From the IMG/VR virus record IMGVR_UViG_3300020352_000009, positions 1-40,093 of that record: a stretch of DNA of 40,093 nt; one strand, written 5' to 3'. This DNA is from a virus. Taxonomy: Duplodnaviria > Caudoviricetes. The number at the start of each line of letters is the position of its first letter. The stretch's first letter is position 1. Shown here one piece after another: positions 5,401-39,687 of the stretch. The notes beneath the pieces are model-generated. The model ran no database searches. It was not told the DNA's origin and saw only the letters and a list, made by a program, of their open reading frames with translations. The position numbers and the translations under genes were made by a program.

Positions 5401-8400
5401 TTTACTTTTTATAATTTCCTTCTTAGCTTTACTAATAGCTTGCTCTAAAGAAATACCAACTTTAAGACCTTTTCTAACAGCAGCTAACAACAACTTAGCA
5501 GCAGGAGTTATTAAGAAAGGATCAGACAGAGATAAGTTTTTCAACTTATTATCCAAAGCGTTTACTTTTTCTAAAGCTTTTTCCAAAGAAGTCTTATCCA
5601 TTTTAGAGGTCATCTCTTCTTTAGTAAAAGAACCCTCTAAATCTTTTTCTACTTCTTTTTCAGAAACCTTTTCTTTAGTTTCAATAGGTTCGGTTTTTGC
5701 AACCTCTGGGGTTGATTTTATTGGCTCTACTTCTTTCTTTGGTTTTGCTTTAGGCTTATCAATAGCCACTTCAATACCTTCTTCTTCAATAACATTCTCG
5801 TAAGCAACCTCTATATCACTTAAAGGATTTCGACCTATCATCTTTTCCTGAAGTTCAATACCCATATCTAGACCTACTTCAGGATTATTTATAATCATTT
5901 CTCCTGAAGGAGTGTTTATTCTTACACCTGAAACATTTCCATTCTCATCTTTTAAAATATTATCAGTAGTAATATCTTGAGTTAATATGTCAGCAGCCTT
6001 TCCAAGAGACCTACGAGTTCCTTTTTCAGTTATAAACACTTGGTCTCCCTGAACATCAATAACTCCCTTAGAGCCACCTATTTCTGCTTCTGAGCCTGAG
6101 ACTTGATCCCTGAAGGCTTTTTCATTAACTTTTCCTGCATTTTCTCTAAAACGAGTAAGTAGTCTTGTTTTGGCAGTTGTTTTTTTAACTGTTTTAGTTT
6201 TGTTATCATAGTTTTCTATTTTTTCGATTACATCATATAGTTCTGATTCTTTAACTGAACCTTCTACTACGTTTTCTGAATCTATTAAATCATATATCTT
6301 ATTAGTGTACTCTTCAGCTTGTGATTCATTTATAGACTCATTGTTTTTTACTTTAGAAAGTAAGTCGTTATTATCTAATACTTCAGACACCTCTTCAGCA
6401 GACCTTGCTTCTATGTATTCTCTAACCTCTTTGTTTTCTTCTTTAGCTAATTCTTTTATTTCTTCCGTAAATGTGTCACCTTCCTCTTGTACTTCTTCCT
6501 TAGATTCAGCCTCTAACTTTCTTTTGTTGCTTCGTAATAATATTTCTTTTCTTTTATTACTATTTTCTTCCATTTTAGCATCTAAATCTGAAATAATTTC
6601 AGGGTCAGACTCTTGTATTTTTTGCCTAGATAAACCTTTAAACTCCTCCTCTAAAGCATCTACTTCTTTTCTTTCTTCTTGAGTAAACGTGTCACCTTCT
6701 TCAACAACCTCTTCAGACTTGGCGGTAATATCGCCAGGTTCAACTTCGGTAGTTTCTTCTTTTTTTAACTCTGATATATCTATATCGTTCTCTTCTGCGT
6801 ATGCCTCTAGCTCCTCTTCAGACATATCTTTTAAAGATTTAGGCTTTGACTTCCTAGCGTCTTCTATAGTCTTTTTAAGTTCTGATATATCTACATCATT
6901 TTCTTCTGCATACTTCTCTAGCTCTGTGTCTGACATATTATCAAACTTAGTAAGAACTTGCTCTTGCTTGGTTTTTTGAATTTCAGTATAAGCTTTTTCT
7001 ACATCATTAAGCTGTGTTTGGTCTCCTGAATTTTTATAGTAATCCTTACCAAGCTTATACATGTTAGAAACCTCAGCACCTGTACCAAAAGTACCTGTAA
7101 GAATTAAAGTCATTAATAGCTTATCCTTAGCCTCATCGTAGTTTCTACCAAATGTATTTCTAAAAGTTTCTTTAGAGATAAAACCGTTTTTAAATCCTTG
7201 CTCTAGATATTCACCACCATACTCTTCTACAGTACCAGCGGTAGTAGCACCCATAACTCTTGTTAAGGGTTTTATAAATTTCATAAATTTAGCAGACTTA
7301 CCTTTAGATAAAAGATTTAAAACCTTATCTGCTCCTTTAGCTCCCAAGAACTCTCCCATACCCATAGCAGCAGAACCCTGAGAGGTTAAATCAAAAGCAA
7401 CGGCTTGTTCTAAGGCTTTAAGCCCCTCACCTGCTATACGTGCTGTTTTTTGACTTCCACCTAAAGCACTAACCAACTTTCCAATTTTACTTGTTAAGTT
7501 AATAGCCGAAGAAGCGTTTCTAGCAATCATTGAGGTTACTATTATCTCCCCCATTATCTCGGCTGAAGTACCAAATGTAGAACCAATTTTTTCTGCCATA
7601 TTATCTACAGCAGAATCGTATTGATCCTCAGTCAATGTAACTCCCTCTTCATTCGCTATACGAACAATGTCTTTTTTAAAGTCTCTATCCGTTCCTACAT
7701 TACCCACTCCTGGGATTGCCTCTGCAAAGCTTTCTCCAAAAGAAGTTATACCCTCTCCAATCTTATCTAAAAATGGAATATTAAACTCACTATCCTCAGC
7801 ATTGAAAAACTCTCCCCAACCCTTAGCTACTGCCGATGGGTTTTCATTTAACAGTAAAGCCCTAGATAAGGCACTAAAATTTAATTCTGATTTTTCTTTT
7901 TCTTCTAAAAGAGAATAAACCTTTTCAGCACCTTCAGGAAGTAAGCCTAACTCTGCCATTTTTATGACGTTAGCGTCAGTCATCCTACCGTTCACAACAC
8001 CATCAGGAAGTGTACCGTCTTTAGTCATTCTAGATATATCATCTCTAGATACATTACCAAACAAACCAAACTCTCCGTTGAAATCTACTTCTGATCTATC
8101 GCCAAAAAAAGCGTCTACCATAGAGTTGTCTATAGCGTTTAAATTGTCATATTCTTGCTTATATCTAGAACTAAATTTTTGAAAGTCTGTTTTAGCCTCT
8201 TTTGAATATTCAGCTTCTAAATCATTTACTAGCTTTTTTTTCTCTCCGTCTATCTCACCCGTCTCTGGATTTATAAAGAACTTTTCAGAATCTTCTCTAA
8301 ATTGGCTTACATAATCTTTTAACTCATATATTTTAGACTTCTGCTCTGGGGTTCTTTCATTATAAGGTATTTGTCTTAACTTATAATACTCATCTATTTT

Positions 8401-9105
8401 AGGTTTTGCCTCATCAATTCTATCTGAATCTAAACCTAACGAGTTAATACCCTTACTTCTCATGGATTTTGAATAATCCCTAGCCGTAAAATCCCTAGCC
8501 TCCTCTATTGTTGCAGCATCACCCCTGTCTAAATAAACTTGAGATGAATCAGACAACATTTTGCTATAGTAATCTTTTCCTTGCTTATTTAATAGGTTAT
8601 TCTTTCTCTCCTCTATTACCTGAAAAACAGAATTGTCATCTGCCTCAGCAGGAAACATGTTAGAAATCTCCTCTGTTGTTTTTGATAAATAATCAAATTT
8701 GTCTCCTAAAATATTATCAGCTTCAGACACAGCGTCTTCATACCAATACTTATCGCTATCTGCCGCCTCTTTAGCTTTTTTTTCGGGTTGATCAAAAACT
8801 TCGTCTGGGTAGTAACCTTTAGCTGATTTAAAAGCTAATTCCGCTTCTGTTCTTTCTTTAGGAAACTCTAAAGGAATATTAGTCTTCTCCAATTGAGATT
8901 CCAAAGAACCATCTTCCGATACAGATTCCGTATCTTCTTGAACCATCTCTTGAGATTCTTCCTGAACTTCTTCTTGGACTTTTTTTTTACTATCTTCTTC
9001 TGGTTGAACATCTAGTTCTTCGAAAGCCGAGTTGTCAAATTCTTCGAAAGCCGAGTTGTCAAATTCTTCGAAAGCCGAGTTGTCAAAAGATTGCTTTTTA
9101 GCCAT
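2410..9105 (-). CDS. Giant internal virion (DNA ejection) protein
   Basis: 2231 aa, helical E/K-rich with G/A-rich hydrophobic patches; last of three genes of increasing size after the tail nozzle, as in podovirus ejection modules. Confidence 0.65.
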   Translation of the reverse strand: MAKKQSFDNSAFEEFDNSAFEEFDNSAFEELDVQPEEDSKKKVQEEVQEESQEMVQEDTESVSEDGSLESQLEKTNIPLEFPKERTEAELAFKSAKGYYPDEVFDQPEKKAKEAADSDKYWYEDAVSEADNILGDKFDYLSKTTEEISNMFPAEADDNSVFQVIEERKNNLLNKQGKDYYSKMLSDSSQVYLDRGDAATIEEARDFTARDYSKSMRSKGINSLGLDSDRIDEAKPKIDEYYKLRQIPYNERTPEQKSKIYELKDYVSQFREDSEKFFINPETGEIDGEKKKLVNDLEAEYSKEAKTDFQKFSSRYKQEYDNLNAIDNSMVDAFFGDRSEVDFNGEFGLFGNVSRDDISRMTKDGTLPDGVVNGRMTDANVIKMAELGLLPEGAEKVYSLLEEKEKSELNFSALSRALLLNENPSAVAKGWGEFFNAEDSEFNIPFLDKIGEGITSFGESFAEAIPGVGNVGTDRDFKKDIVRIANEEGVTLTEDQYDSAVDNMAEKIGSTFGTSAEIMGEIIVTSMIARNASSAINLTSKIGKLVSALGGSQKTARIAGEGLKALEQAVAFDLTSQGSAAMGMGEFLGAKGADKVLNLLSKGKSAKFMKFIKPLTRVMGATTAGTVEEYGGEYLEQGFKNGFISKETFRNTFGRNYDEAKDKLLMTLILTGTFGTGAEVSNMYKLGKDYYKNSGDQTQLNDVEKAYTEIQKTKQEQVLTKFDNMSDTELEKYAEENDVDISELKKTIEDARKSKPKSLKDMSEEELEAYAEENDIDISELKKEETTEVEPGDITAKSEEVVEEGDTFTQEERKEVDALEEEFKGLSRQKIQESDPEIISDLDAKMEENSNKRKEILLRSNKRKLEAESKEEVQEEGDTFTEEIKELAKEENKEVREYIEARSAEEVSEVLDNNDLLSKVKNNESINESQAEEYTNKIYDLIDSENVVEGSVKESELYDVIEKIENYDNKTKTVKKTTAKTRLLTRFRENAGKVNEKAFRDQVSGSEAEIGGSKGVIDVQGDQVFITEKGTRRSLGKAADILTQDITTDNILKDENGNVSGVRINTPSGEMIINNPEVGLDMGIELQEKMIGRNPLSDIEVAYENVIEEEGIEVAIDKPKAKPKKEVEPIKSTPEVAKTEPIETKEKVSEKEVEKDLEGSFTKEEMTSKMDKTSLEKALEKVNALDNKLKNLSLSDPFLITPAAKLLLAAVRKGLKVGISLEQAISKAKKEIIKSKEYKVLRKEDQKFIDDSSLDDIVSRVEQETKGEQQKREDTLEDELNLELEALIEESLDTKKPKTARDVRKIQKRFKDFISANKKILRQASPALNATIANKLAGVSSPATLKSTAEYISKIIKDTKFKKEQEARAKVIDDIRKEIDIKSFRKKGGKYAQGTVAIEIDKFFQKIRDAVNLTKEEASEKIDSILKGVKDFNDISIEDQETLMTLDFADLDSKSIESLNELKKTIKEYKSKGRQWLKLKKEARAKKYKEGVSDLKTAILGKDVEMNPNLRKSSTKTTVQEIKASFTKLIDTLRLGVPKIENWAGLLNHINNLSGKQVGGNQKARDFLKEKFLVPVQKARSQKTKNVQNITSNIKDKKQSIFGKNISKVNKDLQKTMFVRDVNGDRISSGEFGYLSITKDQAMYIYNLQKDPTLADTFNKMKKDPANKALIDTANKLVAEDSKLQEYADWVHNDFYPNYYNRINNEYRKQYDFNLPFNENYSPIRRIDAPNQDVDMLNPTRNIASTLNGSLKERITNTKDLDLTLGMDGTMLGYMDSMEHFITHTDAVKFLNRTFNDSGVKNVITQKFGSGVNGVLDRFIKSLAGNQKADEATMDFMDKLRRRYTTAVLGLNPVVFVKQMTSAPAYATAEGVNTLDYVNQAARMLTTKEGRRDLIDISRSDYVRDRLKRAGFDRDTALNYKNDFNKLVRGGGRVRNKLMFMTKYGDIGAIVLGGTPYYTSMKKKYMKQGMSRAEATEKAMFDFENATEATQQSSSTSELSDLQRGSKMMKLFTMFKTSPAQYLRKGMTTPVRNIVRGRGTSQDIKNIAMFNVVLPTLFTAASKGLLFPDEDDAKDYVASVTAGNLSGIPVFGDMLTAGVNLLKGEDFGINSAPVFDAIFKLTKAVVEGIEEGDIPMDEFIEDIAIPAVELRTGFPIKNAKKLTIDNLERINKGNFDNKTLRKFVGYGDHALGIKKSKKVKTELEKELEKMEKGLDEESFDKELEKIIKIEGL
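9016..9087. repeat. Perfect 24-bp tandem repeat x3 (TTCTTCGAAAGCCGAGTTGTCAAA) encoding FDNSAFEE x3
   Basis: Units at 9016-9039, 9040-9063 and 9064-9087. Confidence 0.97.
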
Positions 9106-9108
9106 TTG

Positions 9109-10746
9109 TTAGTTTTTTTTACCTTTTAAATAGTTCTCATACGCTTTTAAAGCAGTAGCTCTATTCTCTTTAGTGTCTTTTAATTTATTTTTTTTAAGCC
9201 AATTTTGAAGAACCGCTTGTACTTCAGGAGTGCTTTTACCACTAGACGGTAGTTTTTGACCTGTAAAGTCTTCATAAGCAGCACTAAAACCTTGTTGTGC
9301 TAAATAATTTTTAGTTTTTTCATACCACTCATTATACCTAGTTTTATTATCTCCTTTGTATTGCTGTGCAATAGACTTGTGAACTTTATGATAAGGTTCT
9401 AAAACCTGTTGACCTTGATTTTCTAAAACAGCGTAATATCTTTTTTCAGGTTTACCGTCTTTTACTTGATCTTTAAACTTTTGAGTTTTTAAAGACGCAC
9501 CATCTATAGGCATACCTCCTAAATCTACATCTGAACTTGATTTATAGCCTTTAGGAAAAGTGTCTAAAATCATTGACTGAGATACAGTCCAATTTCCAGA
9601 CTTAAAACCTAATTTAACATCAGCTAAATTAAACTTATTTCCTGCCTCTGCTCTGCCTCCTATACCCCTCATTGATTTATCTTTGGTTATGATGCGAGGA
9701 TCATTTTCGTCTAAAGCGTAAGCTTGGCTAACAAAGTTACCACCTATCGGAACAGCTTCTGATGAAGGCTTAAACCTAAAACTTATAGAAGTTTCATAAT
9801 TAAAGGTGTTTTGAGAAGCAACATCCCCCTTGTTGTATCCTATAGTTCCTGGTGCAATCTTTTCTCCAAGTTTGCCTTTAATACCAGTAGCCTGTTTAAT
9901 TCCATAAGGGACATTAAAAGACGTTATTAATGGCGAGGGGTCAAAATCAAAAGCTTGAACAACTTCTGGAGAGCCATTAGGGTTGTAAGCCGATGGCTTA
10001 TTAAAAGCTGTTCGTTTTTTACCCAACATAGCTATTTCTTGATCTATTATTTCTTGGGTTTGTTCATCTGTCCAATACTTCCTAGCCTCTTCGCCATAAA
10101 ACTTAATAGCATTATCTCTTTGTTTTAGAACAATTTCCTCTACTGCCTCTGGAGACTGAGCTAATGTATTAACCCTTATTCCGTCTTTTGTAGTGTAAAG
10201 AGATTCAGGTTTGTAACCTATTTTGTAAACCTCACCCGATATAGCTTTCAAAGCATCTGAAGCATCATATTTTTCATTTAATATCAATTCTGAAGTATCA
10301 AAATTTCCAGCTTGAGCTTGATTAACAAAATCAAAAATCTTCTGTCTAGAATCATCTGTATAGTTAGAACCTGGCTTGTTTACCAACTTCAACATCTCGT
10401 TAGCATACTTTTGAGCATCTTTTGATGAGGTAACATATTGAGCCATTTCATTCTGCTTTTGCTTGAGCTTAAGTGTGGCATCAAAATCACCTTTAATTAT
10501 TGCTCTAGCATTATCTCTATAAAACTTCTGTAAATCATTAACCATTGGCTTGAAAGCTCCAACATCCCTGGACCATAACTGACTTGAATCAGAAACCTTA
10601 GCCATAGCATCAGTAACCTCTTTATCTTTCTTTTTTGCCTCAGTTAGTCTTTCCTTAAAATAAGGATTATAAGTACTCCCAAAAACCTGAGCTGCACCTT
10701 TTCCTTGTCCTGTAGATAAACCTGTAGGGTTGTTTTTCTTTGCCAT
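9109..10746 (-). CDS. Probable internal virion/ejection protein
   Basis: 545 aa, helical N-terminal half; lies between the 255 aa and 2231 aa genes. Confidence 0.55.
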   Translation of the reverse strand: MAKKNNPTGLSTGQGKGAAQVFGSTYNPYFKERLTEAKKKDKEVTDAMAKVSDSSQLWSRDVGAFKPMVNDLQKFYRDNARAIIKGDFDATLKLKQKQNEMAQYVTSSKDAQKYANEMLKLVNKPGSNYTDDSRQKIFDFVNQAQAGNFDTSELILNEKYDASDALKAISGEVYKIGYKPESLYTTKDGIRVNTLAQSPEAVEEIVLKQRDNAIKFYGEEARKYWTDEQTQEIIDQEIAMLGKKRTAFNKPSAYNPNGSPEVVQAFDFDPSPLITSFNVPYGIKQATGIKGKLGEKIAPGTIGYNKGDVASQNTFNYETSISFRFKPSSEAVPIGGNFVSQAYALDENDPRIITKDKSMRGIGGRAEAGNKFNLADVKLGFKSGNWTVSQSMILDTFPKGYKSSSDVDLGGMPIDGASLKTQKFKDQVKDGKPEKRYYAVLENQGQQVLEPYHKVHKSIAQQYKGDNKTRYNEWYEKTKNYLAQQGFSAAYEDFTGQKLPSSGKSTPEVQAVLQNWLKKNKLKDTKENRATALKAYENYLKGKKN

Positions 10747-10751
10747 TATAG

Positions 10752-10952
10752 TTATCTTCTTTTTACAGACATACGTCTTCTTAACTCCTCGTACCTTTTA
10801 TGATCCTCTGGAGTAAATCTTTTAGTTTCTTCATCACCTCCCATCTCAGGAGAATTATTAACCTGTGGAGAAGAAAAAGGTGTAGACCTTACCTCATCCA
10901 TAGCTTTTGCTCTTTTGTACGAATTATATATTCCTAAGTTGTCTGAAATCAT
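10752..10952 (-). CDS. Small hypothetical protein
   Basis: 66 aa; fills the gap exactly with a stop/start overlap. Confidence 0.55.
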   Translation of the reverse strand: MISDNLGIYNSYKRAKAMDEVRSTPFSSPQVNNSPEMGGDEETKRFTPEDHKRYEELRRRMSVKRR

Positions 10953-11719
10953 TATACTGTAAAATTAGTATCAGGATATACATTATCATAAATCCCTCTT
11001 AAATAATTGCTTTCCCTCATTAATGCTTGTTGTTTTGTTTGGTAGGGTAATACAGAAGAAGCGTTGTTTACATTACCTGTATTTTGAGAAACATCAACGG
11101 GTGGTAGATAACCACTAGCAATAGTAGAACCAACAGTATTATTAGCACCACCCGAACCACCTAGATTATTCATATACTGATTAAACATAACAGCGTCTAA
11201 CCCCATTTGAGAGCCTGACTGAACACCACCCATAATATTTTGCATTCCTGCTCCTGTCATAGCCTCTGCTGCCGCCATAGTTTCTTGATAAGGTTGAGCT
11301 TGGTTATAATCAAACTGTTTATCTTTAAAACCTGCAACAACGCCTCTAGTGTTTTGCAAAGCCCTCTCATTAACCTGTCTTTGTTGAGCATCCATTGAAA
11401 GCATATTTCTATAAGCGTCAACCGCAGTTTGCTGAACACCTGCTAATCCTGCCAACCCTGCTTTTCTATCTCCCATAGCATCCAAAGAAGCCTGCTGAGA
11501 CCTCATAACATTATCAATATACTGTTGCTTTTGTTCTGCAGGCATACCTCTTAATGCTTGGATTTGAGCATCGGTTAAACTATCTAAAATCTCTTGAGGG
11601 ATTTCATAATTTGGTCTATCCATAGAGTTTCTCAACTGATTACCCTTTACAGCTTGGTAGATACCTGTCCCTGCTTGAATTGCTGCTGGTGCTAGTGTTA
11701 GTGCTAATGGTAGTGCCAT
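10952..11719 (-). CDS. Probable DNA ejection/pilot protein
   Basis: A/G/Q/M-rich with hydrophobic N-terminus MALPLALTLAPAAIQAGTGIYQA; directly follows the nozzle gene. Confidence 0.65.
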   Translation of the reverse strand: MALPLALTLAPAAIQAGTGIYQAVKGNQLRNSMDRPNYEIPQEILDSLTDAQIQALRGMPAEQKQQYIDNVMRSQQASLDAMGDRKAGLAGLAGVQQTAVDAYRNMLSMDAQQRQVNERALQNTRGVVAGFKDKQFDYNQAQPYQETMAAAEAMTGAGMQNIMGGVQSGSQMGLDAVMFNQYMNNLGGSGGANNTVGSTIASGYLPPVDVSQNTGNVNNASSVLPYQTKQQALMRESNYLRGIYDNVYPDTNFTV

Positions 11720-11753
11720 ATCTTTTTCTTTTTACTAATTTATGAAATATATA

Positions 11754-14700
11754 TTATCTATTACTTCTCTCCGACAATGAGTAATTAATACTCGCTGCGA
11801 ATAGTCTTTCTTCCTTAGTTGAGTCGTTTATTAATTTAACTAATATACTAACATCTCTCATTGAATCACCCTCTATTAATGGGTTATCTACATTAGGTGT
11901 GTTCTCGTCTTTCCAGAAAGGTGCGTAATGGATGTTTTCTTTACTATAAAGTGTGTGACCTTGACCATAAGCTACAGAGAAATCATCTTTAGTTAAATTA
12001 CTTCTCTGACCTCCTTGAGTAAATATATCTCTAACCTGCCACACAGAATCAGACTCCTCACTTAACGCTTGGAAGACTTTTACATTACTTGGGTTTTGAT
12101 TAAACACAGCCCAAACTTCACTACCCCTCTCCTCTCCGTAGAAGCTATTTCTCTTTGCGTTTGAGGTGTTATGCAGGTACGCTTGACCGTTTCTAAAACT
12201 TAAGAAGTCAACCCCTGCTCTTATCATACATTCTGGATCGTAAGAATAGAAAGATGTCCAATGACCCGTTTTCTCTGAGAACCCTAAAGTCTCGGCAGGA
12301 ATAGCCAACAACTTCTGCCTGTCTAGTGTTATATCACCTGCTACACTGTTTACTATAAATGTACCATTAGATAAATCTCTTACAATTTGGAACTCTGTTG
12401 GTACTCCTAGCTTATTAGCAGAGTAGAGAATATCAAAGGTAAATGTGAGACCATCCCTAGTTTCTGTAATCTGATCTGCTTGAGAAGCTACTAACGCTAG
12501 TTCATCAGGAGTAAAACCTTCCGGTCTGCTAACACTTCCAAAAGCAATAATGTATTCATCAAAATTCTCATCAAACACACCCCAAACTTCAGGAAGCAAA
12601 TTAAATGCTGAGTAAAAATTACTCTTACTCTCAAAGTATCCGTGCATTTTATTATCAGACAAAGGAGTGATACCATCATTTGATAGCCTCAACACCTTTC
12701 CATTTCTAACATCAAACCAATACCTTCTGCCTTCGTTTTCCACAAAGCTTTCAGGATTTAAAGTACCGTAGTCACCCTTGTAGTATATTATCTTAGATAA
12801 AACCCTAGAAGAAGAAGCTATAGTTCCTTTGTCAAATTGGTCAAAAATTACATTTTCCTCTACCAATATCTTTCCTGACTTTGTTTCTTGGTAGCAGTCT
12901 AACCTCTTGTCTTGAGAGAATAGTTTTTGAATAGAACCATACTTTCTGTCATAAGTCTCAAATGCGGTATCAAAGAAGCTGCTTAAGCCGTTTATATTCG
13001 TTTCTGGTATAAACCTATCAGAATAGTATATAGTTGTTATCCTGTTAACCCTCTTAGCGTTTTTATCTACAATATTAGGTCTCCCTATATCCGATATTTT
13101 AGACTGCCAAGAATCAGAGTACAGCTGACTATCTATATTTACATTGTAAATTTCTAAACCTGAATTTATAGACCTTTTTCTATAATAAGTGTCACCACCC
13201 CTTAAAGTACCCTTAGCAGGCGTGGAAGAAGGATTAAGAGGATCTTGATTTCCAGTACCACCCTCATGGTAATTAATAACATTACCATCGTCATCCGTGT
13301 GCTTTAAAACCCTAAAACACTCTCCTATTTCATAGTATATATTTTGAGAAGATTCTAACTTAGGTGTGTAAATTTCAAAAAACACACCAGAGCTTAAATC
13401 TAAGTCATCTATGTCATTTTTAACTCTTAGTATACCAGTCTCAAAAGATAAAATACTTAAATCTATATAATCATCAAAAAAGGTTTCACTACTATCTCTA
13501 ATTAACCTTATTCTGTCTCCAGGAGTGAAGTCGTAAACCAAAACAGAACCAGGGTTAGACGTTTTATATTCCTCCGTCAAATTAGTTATATCTAAAACAA
13601 TAATACCAGCATCGTTAAAACTAGTACCGCCATCCTCATAAGTAACTTCACTTGTATACCATTGTAAATATTTACTTGAAGAAGTGTTTTCTGTTCTAAC
13701 AATCTGATAATGAGTAGCCCAATCAGGGGCTAAGTTTTTTATTTCCCAACTTACAATTGGAGCTGTTTTTATTGTTTCTGAGCCTTCTGTATAAAAAGGC
13801 AAAGACAACTCTATCCCGGGATTTGTAACACCACTCCTGTTAGCTCTATCGTAGTAAACAATACCAAAGCTATATACGCCCCCGTTTTTTAATCTAGAAT
13901 TAGAAGCAGAAATCTCAGTTGAATAAACAAAAGCATCTAACTCGGTTGTGTCTTCGTCGTTTAATAAATCCTTACCTATAAACAAACCTTTACTCCTAAT
14001 AAACGGCTCAAAAGAGCCACTTTCGGTTTTTGGTAAAACAGGAATAAAAGTTAAAAAAGACTCACCTCCTCCAGGTGCTAACGCAGTTGTGTAGTCATAA
14101 ACTATAAAAGTAGCCTTACCCCCTGTTTTTGTTTCTTGAGTATCACCACGAACACTAACTACAGAAACACCCTCTACAGGTTCTCCCGTAGGTGTTATGA
14201 CATCCACAGTAAGTTTAGTTCTTGAAAAGTTTTTTATGTCTGTGTTTTTGTTAGGCACTAAAAACAAAAAAGTTCGACTTCCTGTTCCTGTGGCAACAGG
14301 GAAAACTAAGTCTGTACTAGTAGTGGTTAAATCTATAACCGATTGAAAGCTTTGTGTTTCATATTGATAAGCACCCACTTCTATATTTCTAATTCCCGAA
14401 GCCCCTACGCCATTTATATTTGTGCAAAAATAAAAACCATTATGGTCTGCCACTTGAGTAAGAGTGCCTCTTGAGTTTCTACCCGTAGAATAAAAAACGA
14501 CAGCGTTTTCTATTCTTTTTTGACCTAAAGCATCAGCCACGCTAGTTGGGGTGTAAACACTATCATCCTCGTTTATAAAATCACAAACATAACCAGCTAT
14601 ATTATCAATTTTAGCAGATATTTTTGGCACTGACAAATCAGCAATAACAATTTCTATATCTTCAACCGTTACACCATCTTTAACAGTTATCTTAAATTCT

Positions 14701-16310
14701 TTTTTATCAAAAGCTTGATAGCTTCCATACGCTGATCCCCTCGTTGAGCCTTTGTTTATTGAATTTACATACGTTGATGTTCTTTGGTAGGCTCGATTAG
14801 CAAAGTCCGCAGATGTTGTAAGGTGAGAAGCAACCCTTAATATATAAGTTCCATCAGGAACGTCATCAATCTCAAAAGTAGAATAAGCTCCAGAGCTTCC
14901 GTGAGGAGTGTCTCCACTGTTTTCTATAGCCGACCTTATGGCTTTTTTAGCCCCAGAAGAGTCGCCTACATATATGTTTTTTGTTCCTTCTTGGTATCTA
15001 ACATAGTTAAATTTAGCCTTTACTTGTTTAGACACGCCAAAAAAATCTGTACCTGCCAAATACACCACAAAGCCACCCAGAGGGATTTGCTGATGATAAT
15101 TATAAATCATTCCAGAGGAGGTAACTCTTCGGGAATTGTTGTAACCACCAAAAACAGGAATCTCATTACGTGAATCTTTACGTATAACCTGATTCATTCC
15201 GTATTCGTCATTATAAGATAGGTTAGGGTTGGAAATCCTAACAAACCCTTTTATTTTGTTTTTAGAAGTGGAAAGACCTTTTTCATAATCTACCTTCAAG
15301 CCTAAATCAACGTCAACATTATCATAACCCTCTGTTATATTTCCATAAGTTATTCTGTTTCCCTCTATGTATTCTTGAGCTTTGGCAATTTGAGGAAGAG
15401 AATCAAAAAGCTTATTAGACTTTGGCAAAGATATACTATTGTAATACTTATCATTTTTAAAATCATAAATGTAATTACTTTCACGATCTCTTTCATAATC
15501 ATCAGAGTCTTGGTCTACAACCTGAACAAAATCACCTATATTACCAAACCTAACAGCCAAAATAACTCTCTCTACAAGAGAGCCGCCTCTAGGCACTGTT
15601 ACACGAATAACATTTGAGCTATCAGGAATAGCCTGAACAGATATGGGGGAATAGGCACTTTCTTCTTTATCGTCATAAACATAAGCAGCCTTAAACTGAA
15701 CAATCTTGTCAATTAAATAATTAACTTTTTGTTCTGGGTCTGTAATATACTCAAAAGTAGGAGGGAATAAAGGAGGGTATTTAATAGCGTCTATAATATC
15801 TTCGGTTAGAGTACCAGGGTAAGTTTTTTCTCCTAAAGGGGTTAACTTCGTTTTTGGTCTTGCTGTTTCTATATTTATTTTACGAGGAGGGTTAAAGCCA
15901 TCAGTGAAATATAATAAATGATTGTCCTTATCAAACTCTACTACATTATGTCCAGTTATTAATTTATCAGGCTGAAAGTTAAAAAGACTTGTAATCATAA
16001 TCTTATTAATCTTTCCCTCTACGTGGTTATACTCAAATATACCGTGATTGCTTTCTGAGTTATAAACGAAGTAATAACTTAAGTCTCTTAATTTATCCCA
16101 ACATGATCCTATAACCTTATTAGTACCTGATGGTAGTTCTGTATTTGGTATAAATGTGTTACCTTGAATGTTTTCCGCAGAGTAAACTCCACTATCAGTA
16201 GAAGAGCCAATCCTTACATTAACATTTTTTCTAGAAAAACCAGGTTGTATTAATCTCTCTTCGGTATCTAAATCCATACCGTATAAAAACTGTCTCTTCT
16301 CGTAACCCAT
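11754..16310 (-). CDS. Tail nozzle/stabilization protein (P22 gp10-like, crAss muzzle-like) with a large insertion
   Basis: 1518 aa beta-rich; segments LLYFTDGFNPPRKIN, GNRITYGNITEGYD, YSFGIVYYDRANR, YGSIQKL, YWFDVRNGKVLRLSNDGITPLS, WTSFYSYDPE. Confidence 0.8.
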   Translation of the reverse strand: MGYEKRQFLYGMDLDTEERLIQPGFSRKNVNVRIGSSTDSGVYSAENIQGNTFIPNTELPSGTNKVIGSCWDKLRDLSYYFVYNSESNHGIFEYNHVEGKINKIMITSLFNFQPDKLITGHNVVEFDKDNHLLYFTDGFNPPRKINIETARPKTKLTPLGEKTYPGTLTEDIIDAIKYPPLFPPTFEYITDPEQKVNYLIDKIVQFKAAYVYDDKEESAYSPISVQAIPDSSNVIRVTVPRGGSLVERVILAVRFGNIGDFVQVVDQDSDDYERDRESNYIYDFKNDKYYNSISLPKSNKLFDSLPQIAKAQEYIEGNRITYGNITEGYDNVDVDLGLKVDYEKGLSTSKNKIKGFVRISNPNLSYNDEYGMNQVIRKDSRNEIPVFGGYNNSRRVTSSGMIYNYHQQIPLGGFVVYLAGTDFFGVSKQVKAKFNYVRYQEGTKNIYVGDSSGAKKAIRSAIENSGDTPHGSSGAYSTFEIDDVPDGTYILRVASHLTTSADFANRAYQRTSTYVNSINKGSTRGSAYGSYQAFDKKEFKITVKDGVTVEDIEIVIADLSVPKISAKIDNIAGYVCDFINEDDSVYTPTSVADALGQKRIENAVVFYSTGRNSRGTLTQVADHNGFYFCTNINGVGASGIRNIEVGAYQYETQSFQSVIDLTTTSTDLVFPVATGTGSRTFLFLVPNKNTDIKNFSRTKLTVDVITPTGEPVEGVSVVSVRGDTQETKTGGKATFIVYDYTTALAPGGGESFLTFIPVLPKTESGSFEPFIRSKGLFIGKDLLNDEDTTELDAFVYSTEISASNSRLKNGGVYSFGIVYYDRANRSGVTNPGIELSLPFYTEGSETIKTAPIVSWEIKNLAPDWATHYQIVRTENTSSSKYLQWYTSEVTYEDGGTSFNDAGIIVLDITNLTEEYKTSNPGSVLVYDFTPGDRIRLIRDSSETFFDDYIDLSILSFETGILRVKNDIDDLDLSSGVFFEIYTPKLESSQNIYYEIGECFRVLKHTDDDGNVINYHEGGTGNQDPLNPSSTPAKGTLRGGDTYYRKRSINSGLEIYNVNIDSQLYSDSWQSKISDIGRPNIVDKNAKRVNRITTIYYSDRFIPETNINGLSSFFDTAFETYDRKYGSIQKLFSQDKRLDCYQETKSGKILVEENVIFDQFDKGTIASSSRVLSKIIYYKGDYGTLNPESFVENEGRRYWFDVRNGKVLRLSNDGITPLSDNKMHGYFESKSNFYSAFNLLPEVWGVFDENFDEYIIAFGSVSRPEGFTPDELALVASQADQITETRDGLTFTFDILYSANKLGVPTEFQIVRDLSNGTFIVNSVAGDITLDRQKLLAIPAETLGFSEKTGHWTSFYSYDPECMIRAGVDFLSFRNGQAYLHNTSNAKRNSFYGEERGSEVWAVFNQNPSNVKVFQALSEESDSVWQVRDIFTQGGQRSNLTKDDFSVAYGQGHTLYSKENIHYAPFWKDENTPNVDNPLIEGDSMRDVSILVKLINDSTKEERLFAASINYSLSERSNR

Positions 16311-16313
16311 TTT

Positions 16314-17075
16314 TTAAAATTTAGGTGATGCTTTATTACCTTTTCTAAATGCCTGCAAGATGTCCTGAACACTCATAGATGACATCCTAGACCTTAACAA
16401 TTTTTTATTACCACCATAAAGCTGTCTTTTTCTTTCTGACACGCCCGCTCCAATGTTAGCGTTATTCTCAGTAAACTTCCAATCTATCCAAGATTTTATA
16501 GTTTCAACAGCAAAAGGATGTACAGTAAACTCTCCGTTTGTTTTGTTAGGGTCTGCTAAATATTCTAAAGTGATAGTAGAACCACCCCTATATTTGTCTA
16601 ACTGAATCTGCTGGTAGTTTTTATCTATTTTAAAACAACCATTAGAATTTCCTCCACCACCTAAACCATAGTATCTTCCTACGTTTTCACCATTTGTATA
16701 ATGAACCGAAGAATACTCGACATTACCAATATTATAATTACTAGAAGAGGCGTTATCATCCGAACTTTTCTTTCTTGCAATTCTTTTCCCACAATCGTTT
16801 AAGGTTCTATTTAAAGCTATACCATCATTAACGCCTATCTCCCTAAAGTATCCGTGCGAATCTGTAAAACCTATACGTATATAGTTCAAGTAGTCATCAG
16901 GAAGGTCTACGGTGTCTATCTCAGAAACCGTAAGTTCTTTTACAACTGGAGTCCCTATAACGTCGTAATGAAGCTCTCTTAAGCACGCTATGCCTAATTG
17001 AAGTGCTTGGACAAACCTGTGTTCTGTTCTACCCGTTTCTATTAAAAACTCCCTAACTACTTTTTCTAGTTCCAT
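16314..17075 (-). CDS. Tail ring/tubular protein
   Basis: 253 aa; VDLPDDYLNYIRIG and TLEYLAD..HPFAVETI patterns; precedes the nozzle gene. Confidence 0.7.
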   Translation of the reverse strand: MELEKVVREFLIETGRTEHRFVQALQLGIACLRELHYDVIGTPVVKELTVSEIDTVDLPDDYLNYIRIGFTDSHGYFREIGVNDGIALNRTLNDCGKRIARKKSSDDNASSSNYNIGNVEYSSVHYTNGENVGRYYGLGGGGNSNGCFKIDKNYQQIQLDKYRGGSTITLEYLADPNKTNGEFTVHPFAVETIKSWIDWKFTENNANIGAGVSERKRQLYGGNKKLLRSRMSSMSVQDILQAFRKGNKASPKF

Positions 17076-17704
17076 TAAGCTTTATTATTATCGTTTATAT
17101 CATCTTTAGGAATCTGTCTCTGCTTCATATAAAGCTCTACCGTAAAACCAACTAAAGCTTGTTGCATATCTAAAGGAATGTCAACCTCTGGGTCTATCTC
17201 TTCAGACTGAATACCACCTGCTAGTTTTATTAAAATATTATCAACACAATCTGAAGATTTCAAATTAATAAAATACATCTTGGTGTTTTCTACAAAATAA
17301 GCTCTTCTTCCTGCTAGTTTATTAACCAACAATCCCCTAGATAAACCTAAGAAGTTTGGGTTGGTAGGAACAAAAGTGTCAAACTCTGAAGTAACATTAG
17401 AAACCTGAACTATACCCATTCCTAAAGGAAGACCAACATAGGTAGAGGGTATTTTTATATACTTCATACCCCTATACTTATCCTCCTTTACTTTTTCTAC
17501 AAAGCTATATACAAAACCACCGTCTATCCAACTAACGCCCTCTGCTTTATTCTGATAAAAGCTTTGTTTTACCATCTGACCAAAAGCTTGATCAACATAA
17601 ATCATTAACTCATCTTTTCTAACTTCAGAGTCTGCAGTAGGTGTTCCTCCCTCTATAATTCTTTGTGCTTGCTCAGCTATTATTTCCCTAGTATCTCTTG
17701 TCAT
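17075..17704 (-). CDS. Tail ring/tubular protein
   Basis: 209 aa in the ring cluster; DIPLDMQQAL..IPKDDINDN C-terminus. Confidence 0.65.
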   Translation of the reverse strand: MTRDTREIIAEQAQRIIEGGTPTADSEVRKDELMIYVDQAFGQMVKQSFYQNKAEGVSWIDGGFVYSFVEKVKEDKYRGMKYIKIPSTYVGLPLGMGIVQVSNVTSEFDTFVPTNPNFLGLSRGLLVNKLAGRRAYFVENTKMYFINLKSSDCVDNILIKLAGGIQSEEIDPEVDIPLDMQQALVGFTVELYMKQRQIPKDDINDNNKA

Positions 17705-17716
17705 TTTATAAATGTG

Positions 17717-18415
17717 TTACACTCCTTGTTGTTTCATTTGTTCGGCATACTGAATCAATTGAGGCTCTCTTAGGTTAATACCCAAGTAAGAGGCGCACAT
17801 CATAACAATTTCATTAACAACCTCATCTGGAGCTTCTAAATCAATAGAATTAGTAGAATCATAAACAGGTCTTCCGTTTACCAATGTAAAAGCCCAATAA
17901 GGGGTAATAGGTTGTCTTAAGTAGGTAAAATCAACAACACCTATATTTTTTGGATATATCTGTATGTGGTCTTTATAAAAAGCAGCTATAACGTATTTTT
18001 TAGACTTTATTCTTTTTGCATAAATACTAGAACCTAAAAATGAAGAAATCTCGTTATCGTCAACAATATCAACCATACTAGGCATAACAACAGTCTCCCC
18101 ATCCTCCTCAAACTTATAATTGTAAACCAAACTCGAAAGGTGTAGATAGTCGTTAGGCAAAGAAAGTTTACCGTCAGTACCGATAGAAGAAAACTCTTTT
18201 CTTACTAATAAAAACTTGAGATCGTCTGTTACTTTTTGATTTTTCTGCCAACCTGTTTTTACCTGATTAACGTCTTTCAGGTTGTTATACCTTTTCATCG
18301 TCCACTCAGAAAAAGCCCTATCTATAGATAAGTTAAACTCTTTAGGGGTGATATTTCCAGATTGGTCTTTATCAGCTAAATACTTTAAGAAGTCGTATAC
18401 CTTATTTATATCCAT
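17717..18415 (-). CDS. Head-tail adaptor/ring protein
   Basis: 232 aa; DKDQSGNITPKEFN N-terminus, LPNDYLHL, YLRQP. Confidence 0.7.
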   Translation of the reverse strand: MDINKVYDFLKYLADKDQSGNITPKEFNLSIDRAFSEWTMKRYNNLKDVNQVKTGWQKNQKVTDDLKFLLVRKEFSSIGTDGKLSLPNDYLHLSSLVYNYKFEEDGETVVMPSMVDIVDDNEISSFLGSSIYAKRIKSKKYVIAAFYKDHIQIYPKNIGVVDFTYLRQPITPYWAFTLVNGRPVYDSTNSIDLEAPDEVVNEIVMMCASYLGINLREPQLIQYAEQMKQQGV

Positions 18416-32007: not shown

Positions 32008-32310
32008 CTAAACTAATAAATGTTCTGGAACTCCCCTCTTTACCTCTAAACTAGCATTCTCATAATAAGCATGCTTGAACTCCTCCCCATTAGGTGCTTT
32101 CAAAAAAATTATCCAACGACTCTGACCATTAAAATGAAACGCAGTGTCATCATGAAGTATCTTTGAACATTCAAACCTCTGCCCGGCAACTCGATAATTC
32201 TTACCCACCTGCCAAACAAATCCAGGAGTATCTCCCAACGTCTTATTCAAAACTATCAACTGATACACGTTCTCAATAACATCCCTGTCCATATTGTAAA
32301 TATATAACAA
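32008..32310 (-). CDS. Hypothetical protein (true start may be the ATG at 32292)
   Basis: About 95-100 aa ORF co-oriented with the block. Confidence 0.65.
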   Translation of the reverse strand: MLYIYNMDRDVIENVYQLIVLNKTLGDTPGFVWQVGKNYRVAGQRFECSKILHDDTAFHFNGQSRWIIFLKAPNGEEFKHAYYENASLEVKRGVPEHLLV

Positions 32311-32343
32311 TTATTTTTTACCCTAAATGTGTCACCTACAAAC

Positions 32344-33818: not shown

Positions 33819-34142
33819 CTAACCCTTTTTTCTGTCCGAACTAACATGCTTATACTCTATACGCTTACCCCTCTTAGTATGACTGAACACATCCCCAACA
33901 ACAACAACATCCAAATTATAACCAATAACATTAAAAGCCCTTACCAACTCAAACATCTTAAAACTAGATATACAAACCTCCTTAGCATAATAAGTCCTAT
34001 AACTTAAACCCATGTGATGAGCAACATACTTCCGACTAATACCTCGCAACTTCCTTAAACTCACAAACTTATCCAACCAAACAATATACATAGGATCATA
34101 CTTCATCCTCCTGTCATCATGCTTTAAATATACATATGCCAT
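33819..34142 (-). CDS. XRE/Cro-family HTH transcriptional regulator
   Basis: LRKLRGISRKYVAHHMGLSYRTYYAKE fits the XRE HTH pattern; first gene of the leftward block. Confidence 0.75.
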   Translation of the reverse strand: MAYVYLKHDDRRMKYDPMYIVWLDKFVSLRKLRGISRKYVAHHMGLSYRTYYAKEVCISSFKMFELVRAFNVIGYNLDVVVVGDVFSHTKRGKRIEYKHVSSDRKKG

Positions 34143-34544
34143 TTTACATAACTTTTATCGCCTAAACCCGAGTGGAGACCTACCACTTTACATAGCCAAG
34201 ACGTAATTTAACATCCAATATATAAATACATCCCCAAATAACCAAATACCGCTTTAATAAATCCTCTCCTTATGCAAACCGGAATGCGTTACGGTTAGGT
34301 AAATAAACTTCCATACAAGCCTTTAGAGGCAATAAAACCTAGTGAGTGAGGGTAAGGGTCTAGACTGGAGGTAGGTTTTCTTAGAAGTTCTCTGTGGTTG
34401 TGTGGGTGGGGTTATAGCGGTGTGCGACGGGGTGTAGCGATCCTGTGGGGGGCGCAAAACTTTTGGGGGGTGGGTGCGTTTTGGGTTTTGTTGTGCCCCT
34501 CTTTACTGTTTTTGTTTCGCCCCCGCATTACTTAACTGTTTATT

Positions 34545-34557
34545 AATCAACTCTTTA
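34545..34557 (+). promoter_or_regulatory. IHF-consensus box
   Basis: AATCAA-CTCT-TTA matches WATCARNNNNTTR. Confidence 0.55.
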
Positions 34558-34832
34558 CATGTACCCAATAGAACGTTAAAGAAAACTTTGTTTTTGTTTC
34601 TATTTGGGGAAAACTAAAAAGCGTAAACAGTTTTAAAAAGTTTTGTATCTGTTTAAATCGTTTGTTTAATCCTATGAAGTATTATTTTTTTTAGTCCATC
34701 ACTTTAAAAGATCCTTTCCTTTTATCCTTTCTTTTGTTTCTCTCTCTATTGTAATAGTATTGTTGTTTCCTTTTTCTAATTGTGTAACCTTGAAACCTTT
34801 TTTTTGAATTTCCAGGAAACTATTAATATCTG

Positions 34833-34888: not shown

Positions 34889-34921
34889 TTTGTTTTTTAC
34901 ATTTGTTCGGGCGTATCTTTG
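34889..34921 (+). promoter_or_regulatory. Bacteroidota housekeeping-sigma early promoter (-33/-7)
   Basis: TTTG (34889-92), 21-nt spacer, TATCTTTG (34914-21); upstream of the first + strand gene. Confidence 0.75.
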
Positions 34922-34993: not shown

Positions 34994-35443
34994 ATGAATA
35001 ATTTAAGAATAGTAATCGCACAGACTCAAAAAGTGGTAACCACTAAAAAAGAGCTAACAACTGACAAAGTAACGAGCGAAAACAAAGTTAATTTGAAAAC
35101 TTGGAATTTTGACACTGAATCAAAATTCAATCAAAAAAAATCATTGCTTGCAATCGTAAACGGTACTTATGCAATAATAGAAAGAGAAAAGCAAAGAAAA
35201 AAAGAAGGTTTGAGACCTTTCAATCCTATTCAAATTAGTAAGCCTTTAGAGATAGTATTGACTTGGAATAACTCAAGAAAGATAATACTTGCAATCGAGG
35301 AAAGCGGGACTGTAAAAGCCTATAATTATAAACAAGGTTCAAAACAAGACCTAAACAAGGCTAAAGGGCGTTTCTTCCATGAAATTAAAGATATATTGAA
35401 CGGTTACAATGTAAAAGATATATTCGAAGATTTCACAGTATAA
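34994..35443 (+). CDS. First early gene, basic hypothetical protein
   Basis: 149 aa K-rich; A-rich leader; downstream of the promoter. Confidence 0.75.
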   Translation: MNNLRIVIAQTQKVVTTKKELTTDKVTSENKVNLKTWNFDTESKFNQKKSLLAIVNGTYAIIEREKQRKKEGLRPFNPIQISKPLEIVLTWNNSRKIILAIEESGTVKAYNYKQGSKQDLNKAKGRFFHEIKDILNGYNVKDIFEDFTV

Positions 35444-35452: not shown

Positions 35453-35515
35453 AACGGGCGCTAGGCGCAAAACTGGAAACTCAGTTTTAAAGGTTCGAAC
35501 CCTTTGCCCGTTCCA
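35453..35515 (+). ncRNA. tRNA-like element 1 (no D arm, ends in CCA)
   Basis: AACGGGC/GCCCGTT stem; T arm AAAGG-TTCGAAC-CCTTT; single internal hairpin AAAACTG/CAGTTTT; 3' CCA. Confidence 0.75.
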
Positions 35516-35772
35516 AGAATACCCCGTTTTTTGACATTTTGATAAAATTTTAAACGTGTGCAAATTTGTTGCTTTAATGTTTTAAATTGAACGCCCTTTG
35601 TGTTTATACAACTTGACAAGGCTATTAAATGAAATACAAAAAAGACTAACGGCAAAAAATGAAATGTTTAAGACTAAATTAATAAGTAGAAAGGAAGCTT
35701 TACAGCGTAATTAATAACCAAAATTTTTACGTGTTGTTTGTTTCTAATTATAGCTTATTAATATACTATGTT

Positions 35773-35816
35773 ATTTAATAAGGTGGCATTATTCTAAATG
35801 TGTCACCTTATTAAAT
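35773..35816 (+). other. 16-bp hairpin whose 3' side contains the dispersed motif
   Basis: ATTTAATAAGGTGGCA / TGTCACCTTATTAAAT with one G-U pair. Confidence 0.75.
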
Positions 35817-35827: not shown

Positions 35828-35902
35828 AACCTACGATTCTGGGAATCTGCTGAATCAGTAAGAAACAAGTACGTATAAGGGTTCGATCCCCTTAGTAGGT
35901 TC
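35828..35902 (+). ncRNA. tRNA-like element 2
   Basis: AACCTAC/GTAGGTT stem; T arm TAAGGG-TTCGATC-CCCTTA; two mini-hairpins inside; no encoded CCA. Confidence 0.65.
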
Positions 35903-35954
35903 TATTATAAATGTGTAACCTTAAAAAACATTTAAACTTTAAAAACAAACAAAA

Positions 35955-36091: not shown

Positions 36092-36358
36092 ATGAAAAAT
36101 TTTATAACACACGGATACTATACGGTATCTAATTTAGGCGGATACGAAATACAATTGAGTGACTGCGGAAGCTCTGCAAGAGTAAAAGACGCATGGGGAA
36201 GTGAAACCCCAATCATAAGTGAATGGTTCGAAATAGAATATATTGAAAACGGTTATCCTAATATGATGGATGAAAACAAAGAAATGGGGGAATTAATACC
36301 CGTTATTGATCCTGATGGGTATGATATACCCCTTAATATGGTAAAAACTAAAATTTAA
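36092..36358 (+). CDS. Early hypothetical protein, paralog of the C-terminal half of 37033..37560
   Basis: 88 aa; shared SARVKDAWGS and PVIDPDGY. Confidence 0.8.
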   Translation: MKNFITHGYYTVSNLGGYEIQLSDCGSSARVKDAWGSETPIISEWFEIEYIENGYPNMMDENKEMGELIPVIDPDGYDIPLNMVKTKI

Positions 36359-37000: not shown

Positions 37001-37003
37001 TAC

Positions 37004-37035
37004 TAAACGTGTAACCTTAAAAACAAACAATCATG
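37004..37035 (+). repeat. Junction repeat TAAAYGTGTRACCTTAAAAACAAACAATCATG, copy A
   Basis: 30 of 32 bases identical to 39656-39687. Confidence 0.9.
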
Positions 37036-37560
37036 AAAGTAATTAAAATAGAATTAGAGACTGCTGGAATAGTTTCAAGCGTCCAAATAGAGACAGAAAA
37101 CAATTTAAAAATATGGTTTGACGTATGGGAAAATAGAACATACGAAGAAGTATACGAAGAACCCGAAATAACGGGTGATTGGAACAAGTATATCTTTAAA
37201 CTAGACAATAAAGAAGACTTAAAAATAAAAGAGTTTCAAAACAATAGTGAAAACTTTAGTGAATGCTTAGAACTTGCTATTAATGAATACGAAAAACACA
37301 AAAGTTTTAAAGTTCATGGAGGATATACAATATCTAATACAGGTGGATACGAAATAGAAATAAGTGAATGTGGCGACTCTGCAAGAGTAAAAGATGCGTG
37401 GGGAAGTAAAAACCCTAGAATAAGTGAATGGCTAGAAATAGAATACATAATAGATGAAGACTCAGAGCCTGATGAAGAAGGATACAAAGAATCTGAGCCT
37501 GTTATTGATCCTGATGGATATAACATACCCCTAAACATGGTAATGAGAGTAAATGTGTGA
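37033..37560 (+). CDS. Early acidic two-domain protein
   Basis: 175 aa E-rich; C-terminal domain duplicated from 36092..36358. Confidence 0.8.
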   Translation: MKVIKIELETAGIVSSVQIETENNLKIWFDVWENRTYEEVYEEPEITGDWNKYIFKLDNKEDLKIKEFQNNSENFSECLELAINEYEKHKSFKVHGGYTISNTGGYEIEISECGDSARVKDAWGSKNPRISEWLEIEYIIDEDSEPDEEGYKESEPVIDPDGYNIPLNMVMRVNV

Positions 37561-37609
37561 CCTTAAGTAACATCCTCACTTAGGGTTACACACAAAAAAT
37601 TAAGAGGAT
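37554..37609 (+). ncRNA. Putative H-type pseudoknot, copy 1
   Basis: 15-bp stem (two G-U) with loop AACATCCTC complementary to downstream GAGGAT. Confidence 0.7.
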
Positions 37610-37623
37610 AAAATTTAATTATT

Positions 37624-38144: not shown

Positions 38145-38156
38145 AATAAAACAATC

Positions 38157-38342
38157 ATGAAAAAAGAATATCAAACATACAAAGGCTACGGAATAAACTT
38201 AATACAAAAAGAATACACAGCTTTAGCCTATGCGAATCCTGGTTTTTTCGGGAGCAATCTCTCTAAAATAAAAAGAGCAATCAACCAATATTTAAGAGAC
38301 GAAAAGTATACGGATACAAACGAAATTTATCACATAAAATAA
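38157..38342 (+). CDS. Early hypothetical protein
   Basis: 61 aa; AAAACAATC-ATG leader. Confidence 0.7.
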   Translation: MKKEYQTYKGYGINLIQKEYTALAYANPGFFGSNLSKIKRAINQYLRDEKYTDTNEIYHIK

Positions 38343-38349
38343 AACAATC

Positions 38350-38973: not shown

Positions 38974-38980
38974 TAATAAA

Positions 38981-39036
38981 TGTGTAACCCTGAGTAATAT
39001 CCTCACTCTAGGTTACACAGTTTTTAAAGAGGATGT
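38981..39036 (+). ncRNA. Putative H-type pseudoknot, copy 2
   Basis: TGTGTAACC..GAGT / ACTC..GGTTACACA stem; loop AATATCCTC complementary to GAGGATGT. Confidence 0.7.
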
Positions 39037-39049
39037 AATTTAATTAATC

Positions 39050-39655: not shown

Positions 39656-39687
39656 TAAATGTGTGACCTTAAAAACAAACAATCATG
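39656..39687 (+). repeat. Junction repeat, copy B
   Basis: TAAATGTGTGACCTTAAAAACAAACAATCATG. Confidence 0.9.

Follow-up and report, generated by a model that had tools for sequence, protein, structure and literature searches.

Repeated DNA elements have been described in several phages and, as given in the available portions of the sources, four systems come closest to the element studied here. Phage L5 and its cluster A relatives carry more than 20 asymmetric 13-mers called stoperators, many of them in short intergenic gaps; their reader is a monomeric repressor that has two DNA-binding domains (PMC9283540). SPBRE, a phage-wide repeat of SPbeta, was found in silico and then turned out to be the site of a master regulator, MrpR (PMC10516654). 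The PeSL elements of T4-like phages are repeated junction units made up of stem-loops with G-T pairs and a translation start, and they mediate the shuffling of early genes (PMC2839356; PMC4122927). Finally, DnaA can act as a roadblock to RNA polymerase (PMC11317965). The present analysis concerns a 13-letter motif, TAAWYGTGYNACC, that recurs in a viral stretch of 40,093 bases (IMG/VR virus record IMGVR_UViG_3300020352_000009, analysed at full length and hereafter called the window). Its sites exist, are selected as DNA and lie in sense orientation at early gene junctions and in antisense orientation in late genes; with weaker support, they also lie antisense in middle genes. Judging from sequence, we give a probability of about one half to the motif being an operator array for a phage-encoded regulator, and structural modelling suggests that its reader is probably a protein of 290-300 amino acids (aa) with the fold of DnaA domain IV.

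Minus-strand genes, including those of the portal, the large terminase (TerL), a muzzle-like protein and a probable capsid protein, fill positions 1-34.1 kb of the window, and short plus-strand genes start at 35.0 kb. The labels early, middle and late are based on gene content and position, not on expression, and the middle region lies outside the window, so that it is known from the records of relatives only. An earlier note on this sequence had reported 11 exact copies of the motif, all on the plus strand; all 11 were confirmed at their coordinates, and 100 dinucleotide shuffles contained none. When up to two mismatches are allowed there are 28 matches, 24 on the plus strand and four on the minus strand (shuffle mean 6.1, maximum 14). 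Its near matches fared less evenly: those at 2041, 4134, 17709 and 34777 have one mismatch and that at 11948 has two, but the one at 35551 (TAAACGTGTGCAA) has three and is no match at two or fewer, and a one-mismatch copy at 12440 was missing from the list. Four exact copies do lie within minus-strand coding sequences, where they read EGDTFT twice, QGNTFI and DGDTFI as had been claimed. The two EGDTFT copies, at 6468 and 6684, belong to a single protein, each within an acidic segment resembling the other, and may reflect a duplication. The motif is present in all nine related records searched (G001-G009). As G003 overlaps G001, G005 is close to G002 and G007 mirrors G006, the independent lineages that bear it number about seven, the window included. 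Five related isolates have zero or one exact match each. The sites of the window and the elements around them are as follows, the type letters of the junction units being explained below.

2041-2053, plus strand: one-mismatch site TAATCGTGTGACC, antisense in a 218-aa gene (GHTIN)
4134-4146, plus strand: one-mismatch site, antisense in the gene of a 2231-aa virion protein
6468-6696, plus strand: two exact sites (6468-6480 and 6684-6696), antisense in the 2231-aa virion gene (GDTFT)
12440-12452, plus strand: one-mismatch site, antisense in the 1518-aa gene (GLTFT)
16151-16163, plus strand: exact site, antisense in the muzzle-like 1518-aa gene (GNTFI)
17709-17721, plus strand: one-mismatch late junction site, 4 nt before the ATG of a minus-strand 209-aa gene
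19146-19158, plus strand: exact site, antisense in a 621-aa virion gene (GDTFI)
32324-32336, plus strand: exact site in an intergenic gap, flanked by a minus-strand terminator-like hairpin and a putative late -7 box
34453-34600, no strand: probable 148-bp direct terminal repeat (a contig at about twice the flanking depth)
34777-34789, plus strand: first site, TAATTGTGTAACC, 177 bp inside of the repeat and upstream of the first early gene
34914-34921, plus strand: host-type -7 box TATCTTTG before the first early gene (consensus TAnnTTTG)
35773-35816, plus strand: type C hairpin, of which the site at 35795-35807 forms part of the loop and the 3' arm (RNA fold -20 kcal/mol, z -6.6)
35908-35920, plus strand: exact early junction site, with a syntenic type E dyad in G001, G004 and G009
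37004-37035, plus strand: type A junction unit (site, 16-nt leader TTAAAAACAAACAATC, ATG)
37550-37609, plus strand: type B junction unit, with a 15-bp stem (37554-37592) whose 5' arm is the site
38977-39034, plus strand: second type B junction unit
39656-39687, plus strand: type A junction unit

Inside genes selection acts on the DNA, because copies exceed synonymous shuffles, codons are identical at orthologous sites despite near-saturated third positions, and sites have been gained and lost. The late coding sequences of the window hold four exact copies against a shuffle mean of 0.24 (maximum three in 1000), and seven copies with at most one mismatch against 1.7 (maximum five). In each of five genomes tested with a W-widened pattern, five to seven exact copies in late coding sequences compare with means of 0.14-0.29, and none of 300 shuffles was as high; all five motif-free isolates lack such an excess. 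The site in the 621-aa gene is written with the codons GGT GAC ACA TTT in all six aligned genomes and the site at 16151 with identical codons in five of six, being lost in G009, while the background third-position identity to distant genomes is 0.4-0.7. Gain and loss were seen at about 20 alignment columns (23 listed, two of which are paralogue duplicates); in G009, one column has GDTI spelled with non-motif codons and another has GSTI spelled with motif codons. The functional DNA signal proposed in the earlier note is supported by two of the checks it had suggested, codon-preserving shuffles and synonymous-site conservation in relatives. The first site holds its position in G001, G002 and G005 and was not found at up to one mismatch in G004 and G009; the 32324 site has one mismatch in G001 and two in G002; the 17709 site has two in both; and the 2041 site is found in the window, G001 and G002 and is absent from G008.

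Strand counts were made over eight records, with G003 and G007 left out and region borders set from maps of open reading frames (ORFs). Exact sites on the plus and minus strands number 31 and 0 in early regions, 37 and 0 in late regions and 0 and 4 in middle regions, the last tally coming from five partly redundant records (84.6 kb); with up to one mismatch the figures become 41 and 1, 55 and 1, and 6 and 19. Exact minus-strand copies in G004 (25663) and G009 (31835) are intergenic. Middle genes are on the plus strand, and among ORFs of at least 45 aa their antisense near-matches number 4 vs 0.41 in G001, 5 vs 1.14 in G005 and 4 vs 0.74 in G009. The statement that the orientation does not flip at 34.3 kb stands within the window, but the middle region of relatives tends to flip. 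Most of the middle sites being on the opposite strand, gene context accounts for the orientation better than the direction of the genome does. These data fit a rule by which sites are sense at early gene junctions and antisense within coding sequence, and codon constraints also favour the latter. In-gene sites nearly always read G-x-T-[FI] in the coding strand, while for sense copies frame 0 is barred by a stop codon and rarer codons are needed. Opportunity counts favour the antisense orientation about 1.5- to 2.5-fold and synonymous-shuffle means about 3- to 20-fold.

At the early junctions most sites start 0-3 bp after a stop codon or overlap it, and several kinds of unit can be told apart. 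Type A has a fixed 16-nt leader without a stem, often placing the site 16 bp ahead of the next ATG. The type B site takes part in a stem that, over 17 sequences, is paired in 95.8% of cells, has three pairs with two-sided changes and reaches a covariation score above all 500 shuffles, with 25 G-T against 6 A-C combinations. The type B loop is complementary, without covariation, to the downstream GAGGAT (37604-37609 in the unit at 37550), a possible pseudoknot. The type C hairpin has variants in relatives, type D is a small hairpin, and type E, found in G001, G004 and G009, is a 16-bp dyad, TGTGYNAC/GTNRCACA, whose N varies independently in both halves. Stem-loops are thus found in types B, C and D; type A and the intragenic sites have none. 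Cassette content and order differ among five genomes at these junctions. Early and late sites differ at N, which is A or G in the former and C or T in the latter, and position 6 is G in all sites counted. A mini-ORF reading of type A (ATG-TGT...TGA) was rejected, being broken by ACG variants and inapplicable to late sites.

An operator for a phage protein had been among the proposals of the earlier note, and it is the reading that we favour. Palindromic forms argue for it. Besides the type E dyads, the related MW202828.1, a phage of the same layout, carries between 43745 and 55154 a perfect 16-bp palindrome, GTGTCGTTAACGACAC, in 14 exact copies and one near copy, at early junctions and in coding sequences; six of the 14 lie inside annotated coding sequences, and a palindrome cannot be a one-way promoter. 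On the operator reading, expression of the middle region would lead the regulator to occupy the early junction sites and to block initiation or elongation, as L5 stoperators do, and early transcription would be shut off at gene junctions. The regulator would also occupy the 32324 site, just upstream of the putative late promoter. Intragenic copies would arise where the coding strand cheaply spells G-[DNH]-T-[FI], and would offer the regulator additional places to bind, at which antisense read-through is blocked or the protein is titrated while the genome is copied. The repeated junction units could, in addition, provide the crossover points at which early gene cassettes are shuffled. A bolder version, which we think unlikely, is that in a lytic Bacteroidetes podovirus the DNA-binding domain of DnaA has become a master regulator, whose boxes, antisense in virion genes, would block antisense transcription or titrate the protein with the multiplication of genomes and so act as a copy-number timer of the early-to-late switch.

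The putative late promoter is defined by a -7 box, TATATTTA, at 32304-32297 on the minus strand; the 32324 site would span about -44 to -32 of it. The ORF at 32292 may be leaderless. Ahead of late genes (for instance those at 32292, 31167, 26249, 22148, 11719 and 2356, all minus) there are TATATT(T/A/G)-type boxes and not the 13-mer, and several of these boxes come after terminator-like hairpins. Parts of both the early and the late region are represented by RNA contigs of low depth, which carry no strand or end information.

The candidate reader is encoded in the middle region, in all five motif-bearing records that cover the relevant part and in none of the five motif-free isolates; on the G001 contig its gene occupies 17100-18005 (minus strand). 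Its AlphaFold model has a predicted local distance difference test (pLDDT) score of 93.9. Residues 39-142 match DnaA domain IV with Z-scores of 9.8 (root-mean-square deviation 3.0, 92 aligned residues) and 9.6 (2.8, 91 aligned), the next unrelated structure having a Z of 5.2; Foldseek also ranks DnaA first (E 0.29), and a profile search matches 1j1v (E 0.004). Two further helical repeats follow this part at the C-terminus, and there is no AAA+ domain. A one-mismatch site lies 101-112 bp upstream of the gene in G004 and G009. By co-occurrence this protein does not stand out, because other middle genes (resolvase, primase-helicase, annealing protein) are as widely shared; the predicted DnaA-IV fold, together with the TGTG core of the motif, makes it the candidate. 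Three other proteins were considered and rejected. The XRE regulator at 33819, suggested in the earlier note, is an unlikely reader: it has no tblastn match in the motif-bearing G009, where a different XRE-like ORF stands in its place. The first early protein (34994-35443, plus strand) has no tblastn match in G002, a genome with 16 sites, and none was obtained in G004 for a double winged-helix protein of about 305 aa. For the first early protein the model has a pLDDT of 60.5 and no fold match exceeds Z 4.9, but this is no evidence of a new fold. It matches no family or fold; its identity in G009 is 80%, against 55% for the capsid protein, and G002 carries an unrelated-looking ORF in its place. 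The double winged-helix gene, at 16119-17057 of the G001 contig (minus strand), has a reading frame that stays open for about 45 codons ahead of the first ATG or GTG; the extension also occurs in G009, possibly with a non-standard start.

Several observations weigh against the operator array, its reader or the orientation rule. The reader gene lies outside the window and was seen in relatives only; there is no site near it in G001 and G002, where the gene is located elsewhere and the same GroES-like turn has no site. The candidate is only 26-31% identical in G004 and G009, yet the motif is nearly unchanged, and its co-occurrence with the motif is confounded by kinship. The antisense excess in the middle region is modest: with ORFs of at least 60 aa only G009 is significant (4 vs 0.55), G001, G004 and G005 having p values of 0.055-0.2, and G001, G002 and G005 have sites in common. 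Conversely, the late count of 55 vs 1, which represents about 20 independent columns, is somewhat more one-sided than the 4:1 background (p about 0.01). The motif pattern was widened after G009 had been inspected. L5 sites point with transcription, whereas the intragenic copies here point against it. Finally, of the six consensus positions of the host -7 box, five are matched by the first eight bases of the motif, a point in favour of a promoter.

The promoter explanation is the main rival and a serious one, although we regard it as less likely than the operator array. According to it, the motif is a phage early promoter spanning -12 to +1, a variant of TAnnTTTG carried in PeSL-like promoter/stem-loop cassettes, and intragenic copies fire antisense to keep late and middle genes silent early. 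In the available part of its source, the Bacteroidetes -7 box has the consensus TAnnTTTG and spans -12 to -5 (PMC9723704), and the 13-mer would therefore end at +1. The fixed 16-nt leader of type A, the motif-overlapping stems with G-T pairs, the varying cassette order at junctions and the counts of 41 vs 1 sense in early regions and 55 vs 1 antisense in late regions are all consistent with a promoter. Nevertheless, the invariant G at position 6 replaces a host T, canonical TAnnTTTG boxes occur elsewhere in the phage, no TTTG was seen by eye at the expected upstream distance in the window contexts, and operators account better for the palindromic dyads and for the palindrome of MW202828. The 39 proteins of the window and 49 early, middle and distal proteins of G001, a genome that is 98% complete, gave no match to an RNA polymerase or sigma factor family or to a T7/SP6-like single-subunit RNA polymerase gene. 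The DxDxD motif of virion RNA polymerases, including the DFDxD-type motif of the crAss type, was not found in the 2231-aa virion protein, and none is conserved among its 23 homologues; all three polymerase or sigma explanations were thus rejected for want of a motif or family match. Residues 880-2231 of that protein have Atlas matches to unnamed viral clusters, with LPD39 on 28% of the members of one cluster. Host genomes give no help to a promoter, as five Bacteroidota-labelled genomes, which need not include the true host, contain 23 matches vs 21 for the reversed control, and an 18-letter motif pattern had 46 single matches in GTDB genomes, none of them clustered.

Alternatively, the motif could be a genome-polar signal for a rightward process such as ejection, translocation, replication or Chi-like protection, as the earlier note had also proposed; we consider this quite improbable. 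The case for it starts from the probable direct terminal repeat. The depth of the 148-bp contig is 26.8 vs 12-14 for its flanks in run X2 and 60.5 vs 32 in X5, a doubling found in two of the three DNA runs and not in X1, and in Gundel_1, too, the direct terminal repeat sits at this kind of divergence point. The linear genome probably begins at 34453-34600 and continues rightwards through the early genes, the middle genes and the late genes, so that the plus strand would mean left to right. The first copy would then lie just inside the repeat, and the exact counts of early and late regions, 31 to 0 and 37 to 0, would agree with a one-way reading. That reading is weakened by the middle region, where near matches are 19 to 6 on the opposite strand and exact sites are 0 plus and 4 minus. 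The window and G009 also have site-free stretches, of 13 kb and about 20 kb respectively, the sites cluster in proteins that tolerate G-D-T-[FI], and the five related isolates with the same virion architecture do without the motif.

An RNA-level or recombination element (RNA processing, antisense pairing of early and late RNA, a serine resolvase site) or molecular drive is more doubtful still: the paired and covarying type B stem, its excess of G-T over A-C and the resolvase of G001, G002, G004, G005 and G009 speak for it, but close kinship links the 17 type B sequences, a stem is lacking in type A and at the intragenic sites, early and late sites would mispair because they differ at N, no site lies upstream of the resolvase gene, and no Rfam family was matched at gathering score (two miRNA-family matches fell far below it). 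A host LexA box or a Chi/KOPS-like word finds no support, the motif matching neither of the Bacteroidetes LexA boxes given in the available part of the source, GGA-N5-TCC and CTAA-N5-TTAG (PMC8565304), and showing no host enrichment. Several further features of these genomes were recorded. In the window, two tRNA-like intergenic elements (35455-35517 and 35830-35905, plus strand) have a T-arm-like GGTTCGA loop, and one ends in CCA; similar sequences exist in G001, G004 and G009, and neither ARAGORN nor Rfam called anything there. An 88-aa ORF at 36092-36358 resembles the C-terminal half of a 175-aa ORF (37033-37560, both plus), likely an early-cassette duplication. A variant 72-bp segment at 39945-40064 in runs X1, X2, X5 and X13 implies at least two coexisting strains. 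The G001 contig carries at 10105-12709 (minus strand) a module of glnK (P-II), the ammonium transporter amtB and a BBP2 porin, also present in G005 and in part in G002, with a host-type TAACTTTGCA box ahead; by gene content it is a candidate nitrogen-uptake auxiliary module. Resemblances to the SP6-promoter core, Hin/Gin, CRP, dif and ECF found no support in the analysis.

The window itself appears from its genes to be part of an uncultured marine podovirus, a distant relative of Pachyviridae and Elemovirus, and the DNA runs that contain most of it are marine. Its TerL is 25.6-32.3% identical and its portal 22-34% identical to those of Elemovirus, Pachyviridae, Pervagoviridae and MW202828 records, and we infer a Bacteroidota host because of the TerL similarity. 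In phi38:1 (NC_021796.1), between 11.9 and 29.7 kb, AAACACTATCAAA occurs in one orientation shortly before nine minus-strand genes, and the near copy of the MW202828 palindrome lies in a gene annotated dnaA; in elemoA only a host-type TATCTTTGCA was seen, and in the available part of the source the early transcripts of phi14:2 have no common upstream motif (bioRxiv 2020.03.07.982082). As phi38:1 is culturable, and as both phi38:1 and MW202828 carry junction motifs of their own, the design may be general in the group. To our knowledge, gene timing in relatives of crAss-like phages that lack an RNA polymerase has not been described. The literature search retrieved no description of this motif or of a clade motif; supplements and most subscription papers lie outside its coverage and may describe phi38:1 or elemo motifs. 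The analysis provides a precise site and a named candidate reader. It gives clear support to the view that a regulatory word shapes virion protein sequence, and it shows how the layout of genes, together with codon constraints, can give the impression of a polarity across the genome; the copy-number timer, if true, would be built into coding sequence at the cost of amino-acid changes.

In comparison with the systems named at the outset, PeSL elements share with these junction units their repetition and their position flanking variable early genes. They differ in having consensus sigma70 promoters in hyperplastic regions, whereas the core of the present motif is off-consensus, with G and not T at position 6 in all sites counted, and recurs antisense in conserved late genes. 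SPBRE is likewise a repeated phage-wide element whose reader is a repurposed DNA-enzyme fold, but it is a 15-bp element of prophage promoter regions, while many of the sites described here are in coding sequences; of genes that could point to a temperate phage, G001 has only a 221-aa resolvase-family gene. L5 offers a likeness in the sites themselves, many asymmetric 13-bp words across a phage genome. Its orientation pattern was not recovered, the sites being sense in early regions, antisense in late regions (55 vs 1) and mostly antisense in middle regions, no integrase-based lysogeny module was seen here, and the candidate reader has the predicted fold of DnaA domain IV. DnaA itself has an AAA+ domain that the candidate lacks, and the candidate has extra helical repeats. 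The DnaA box, TTATNCACA, shares only the TGTG core with the 13-bp site; the likeness lies in the predicted domain IV fold of the candidate reader and in an asymmetric box with CACA/TGTG.

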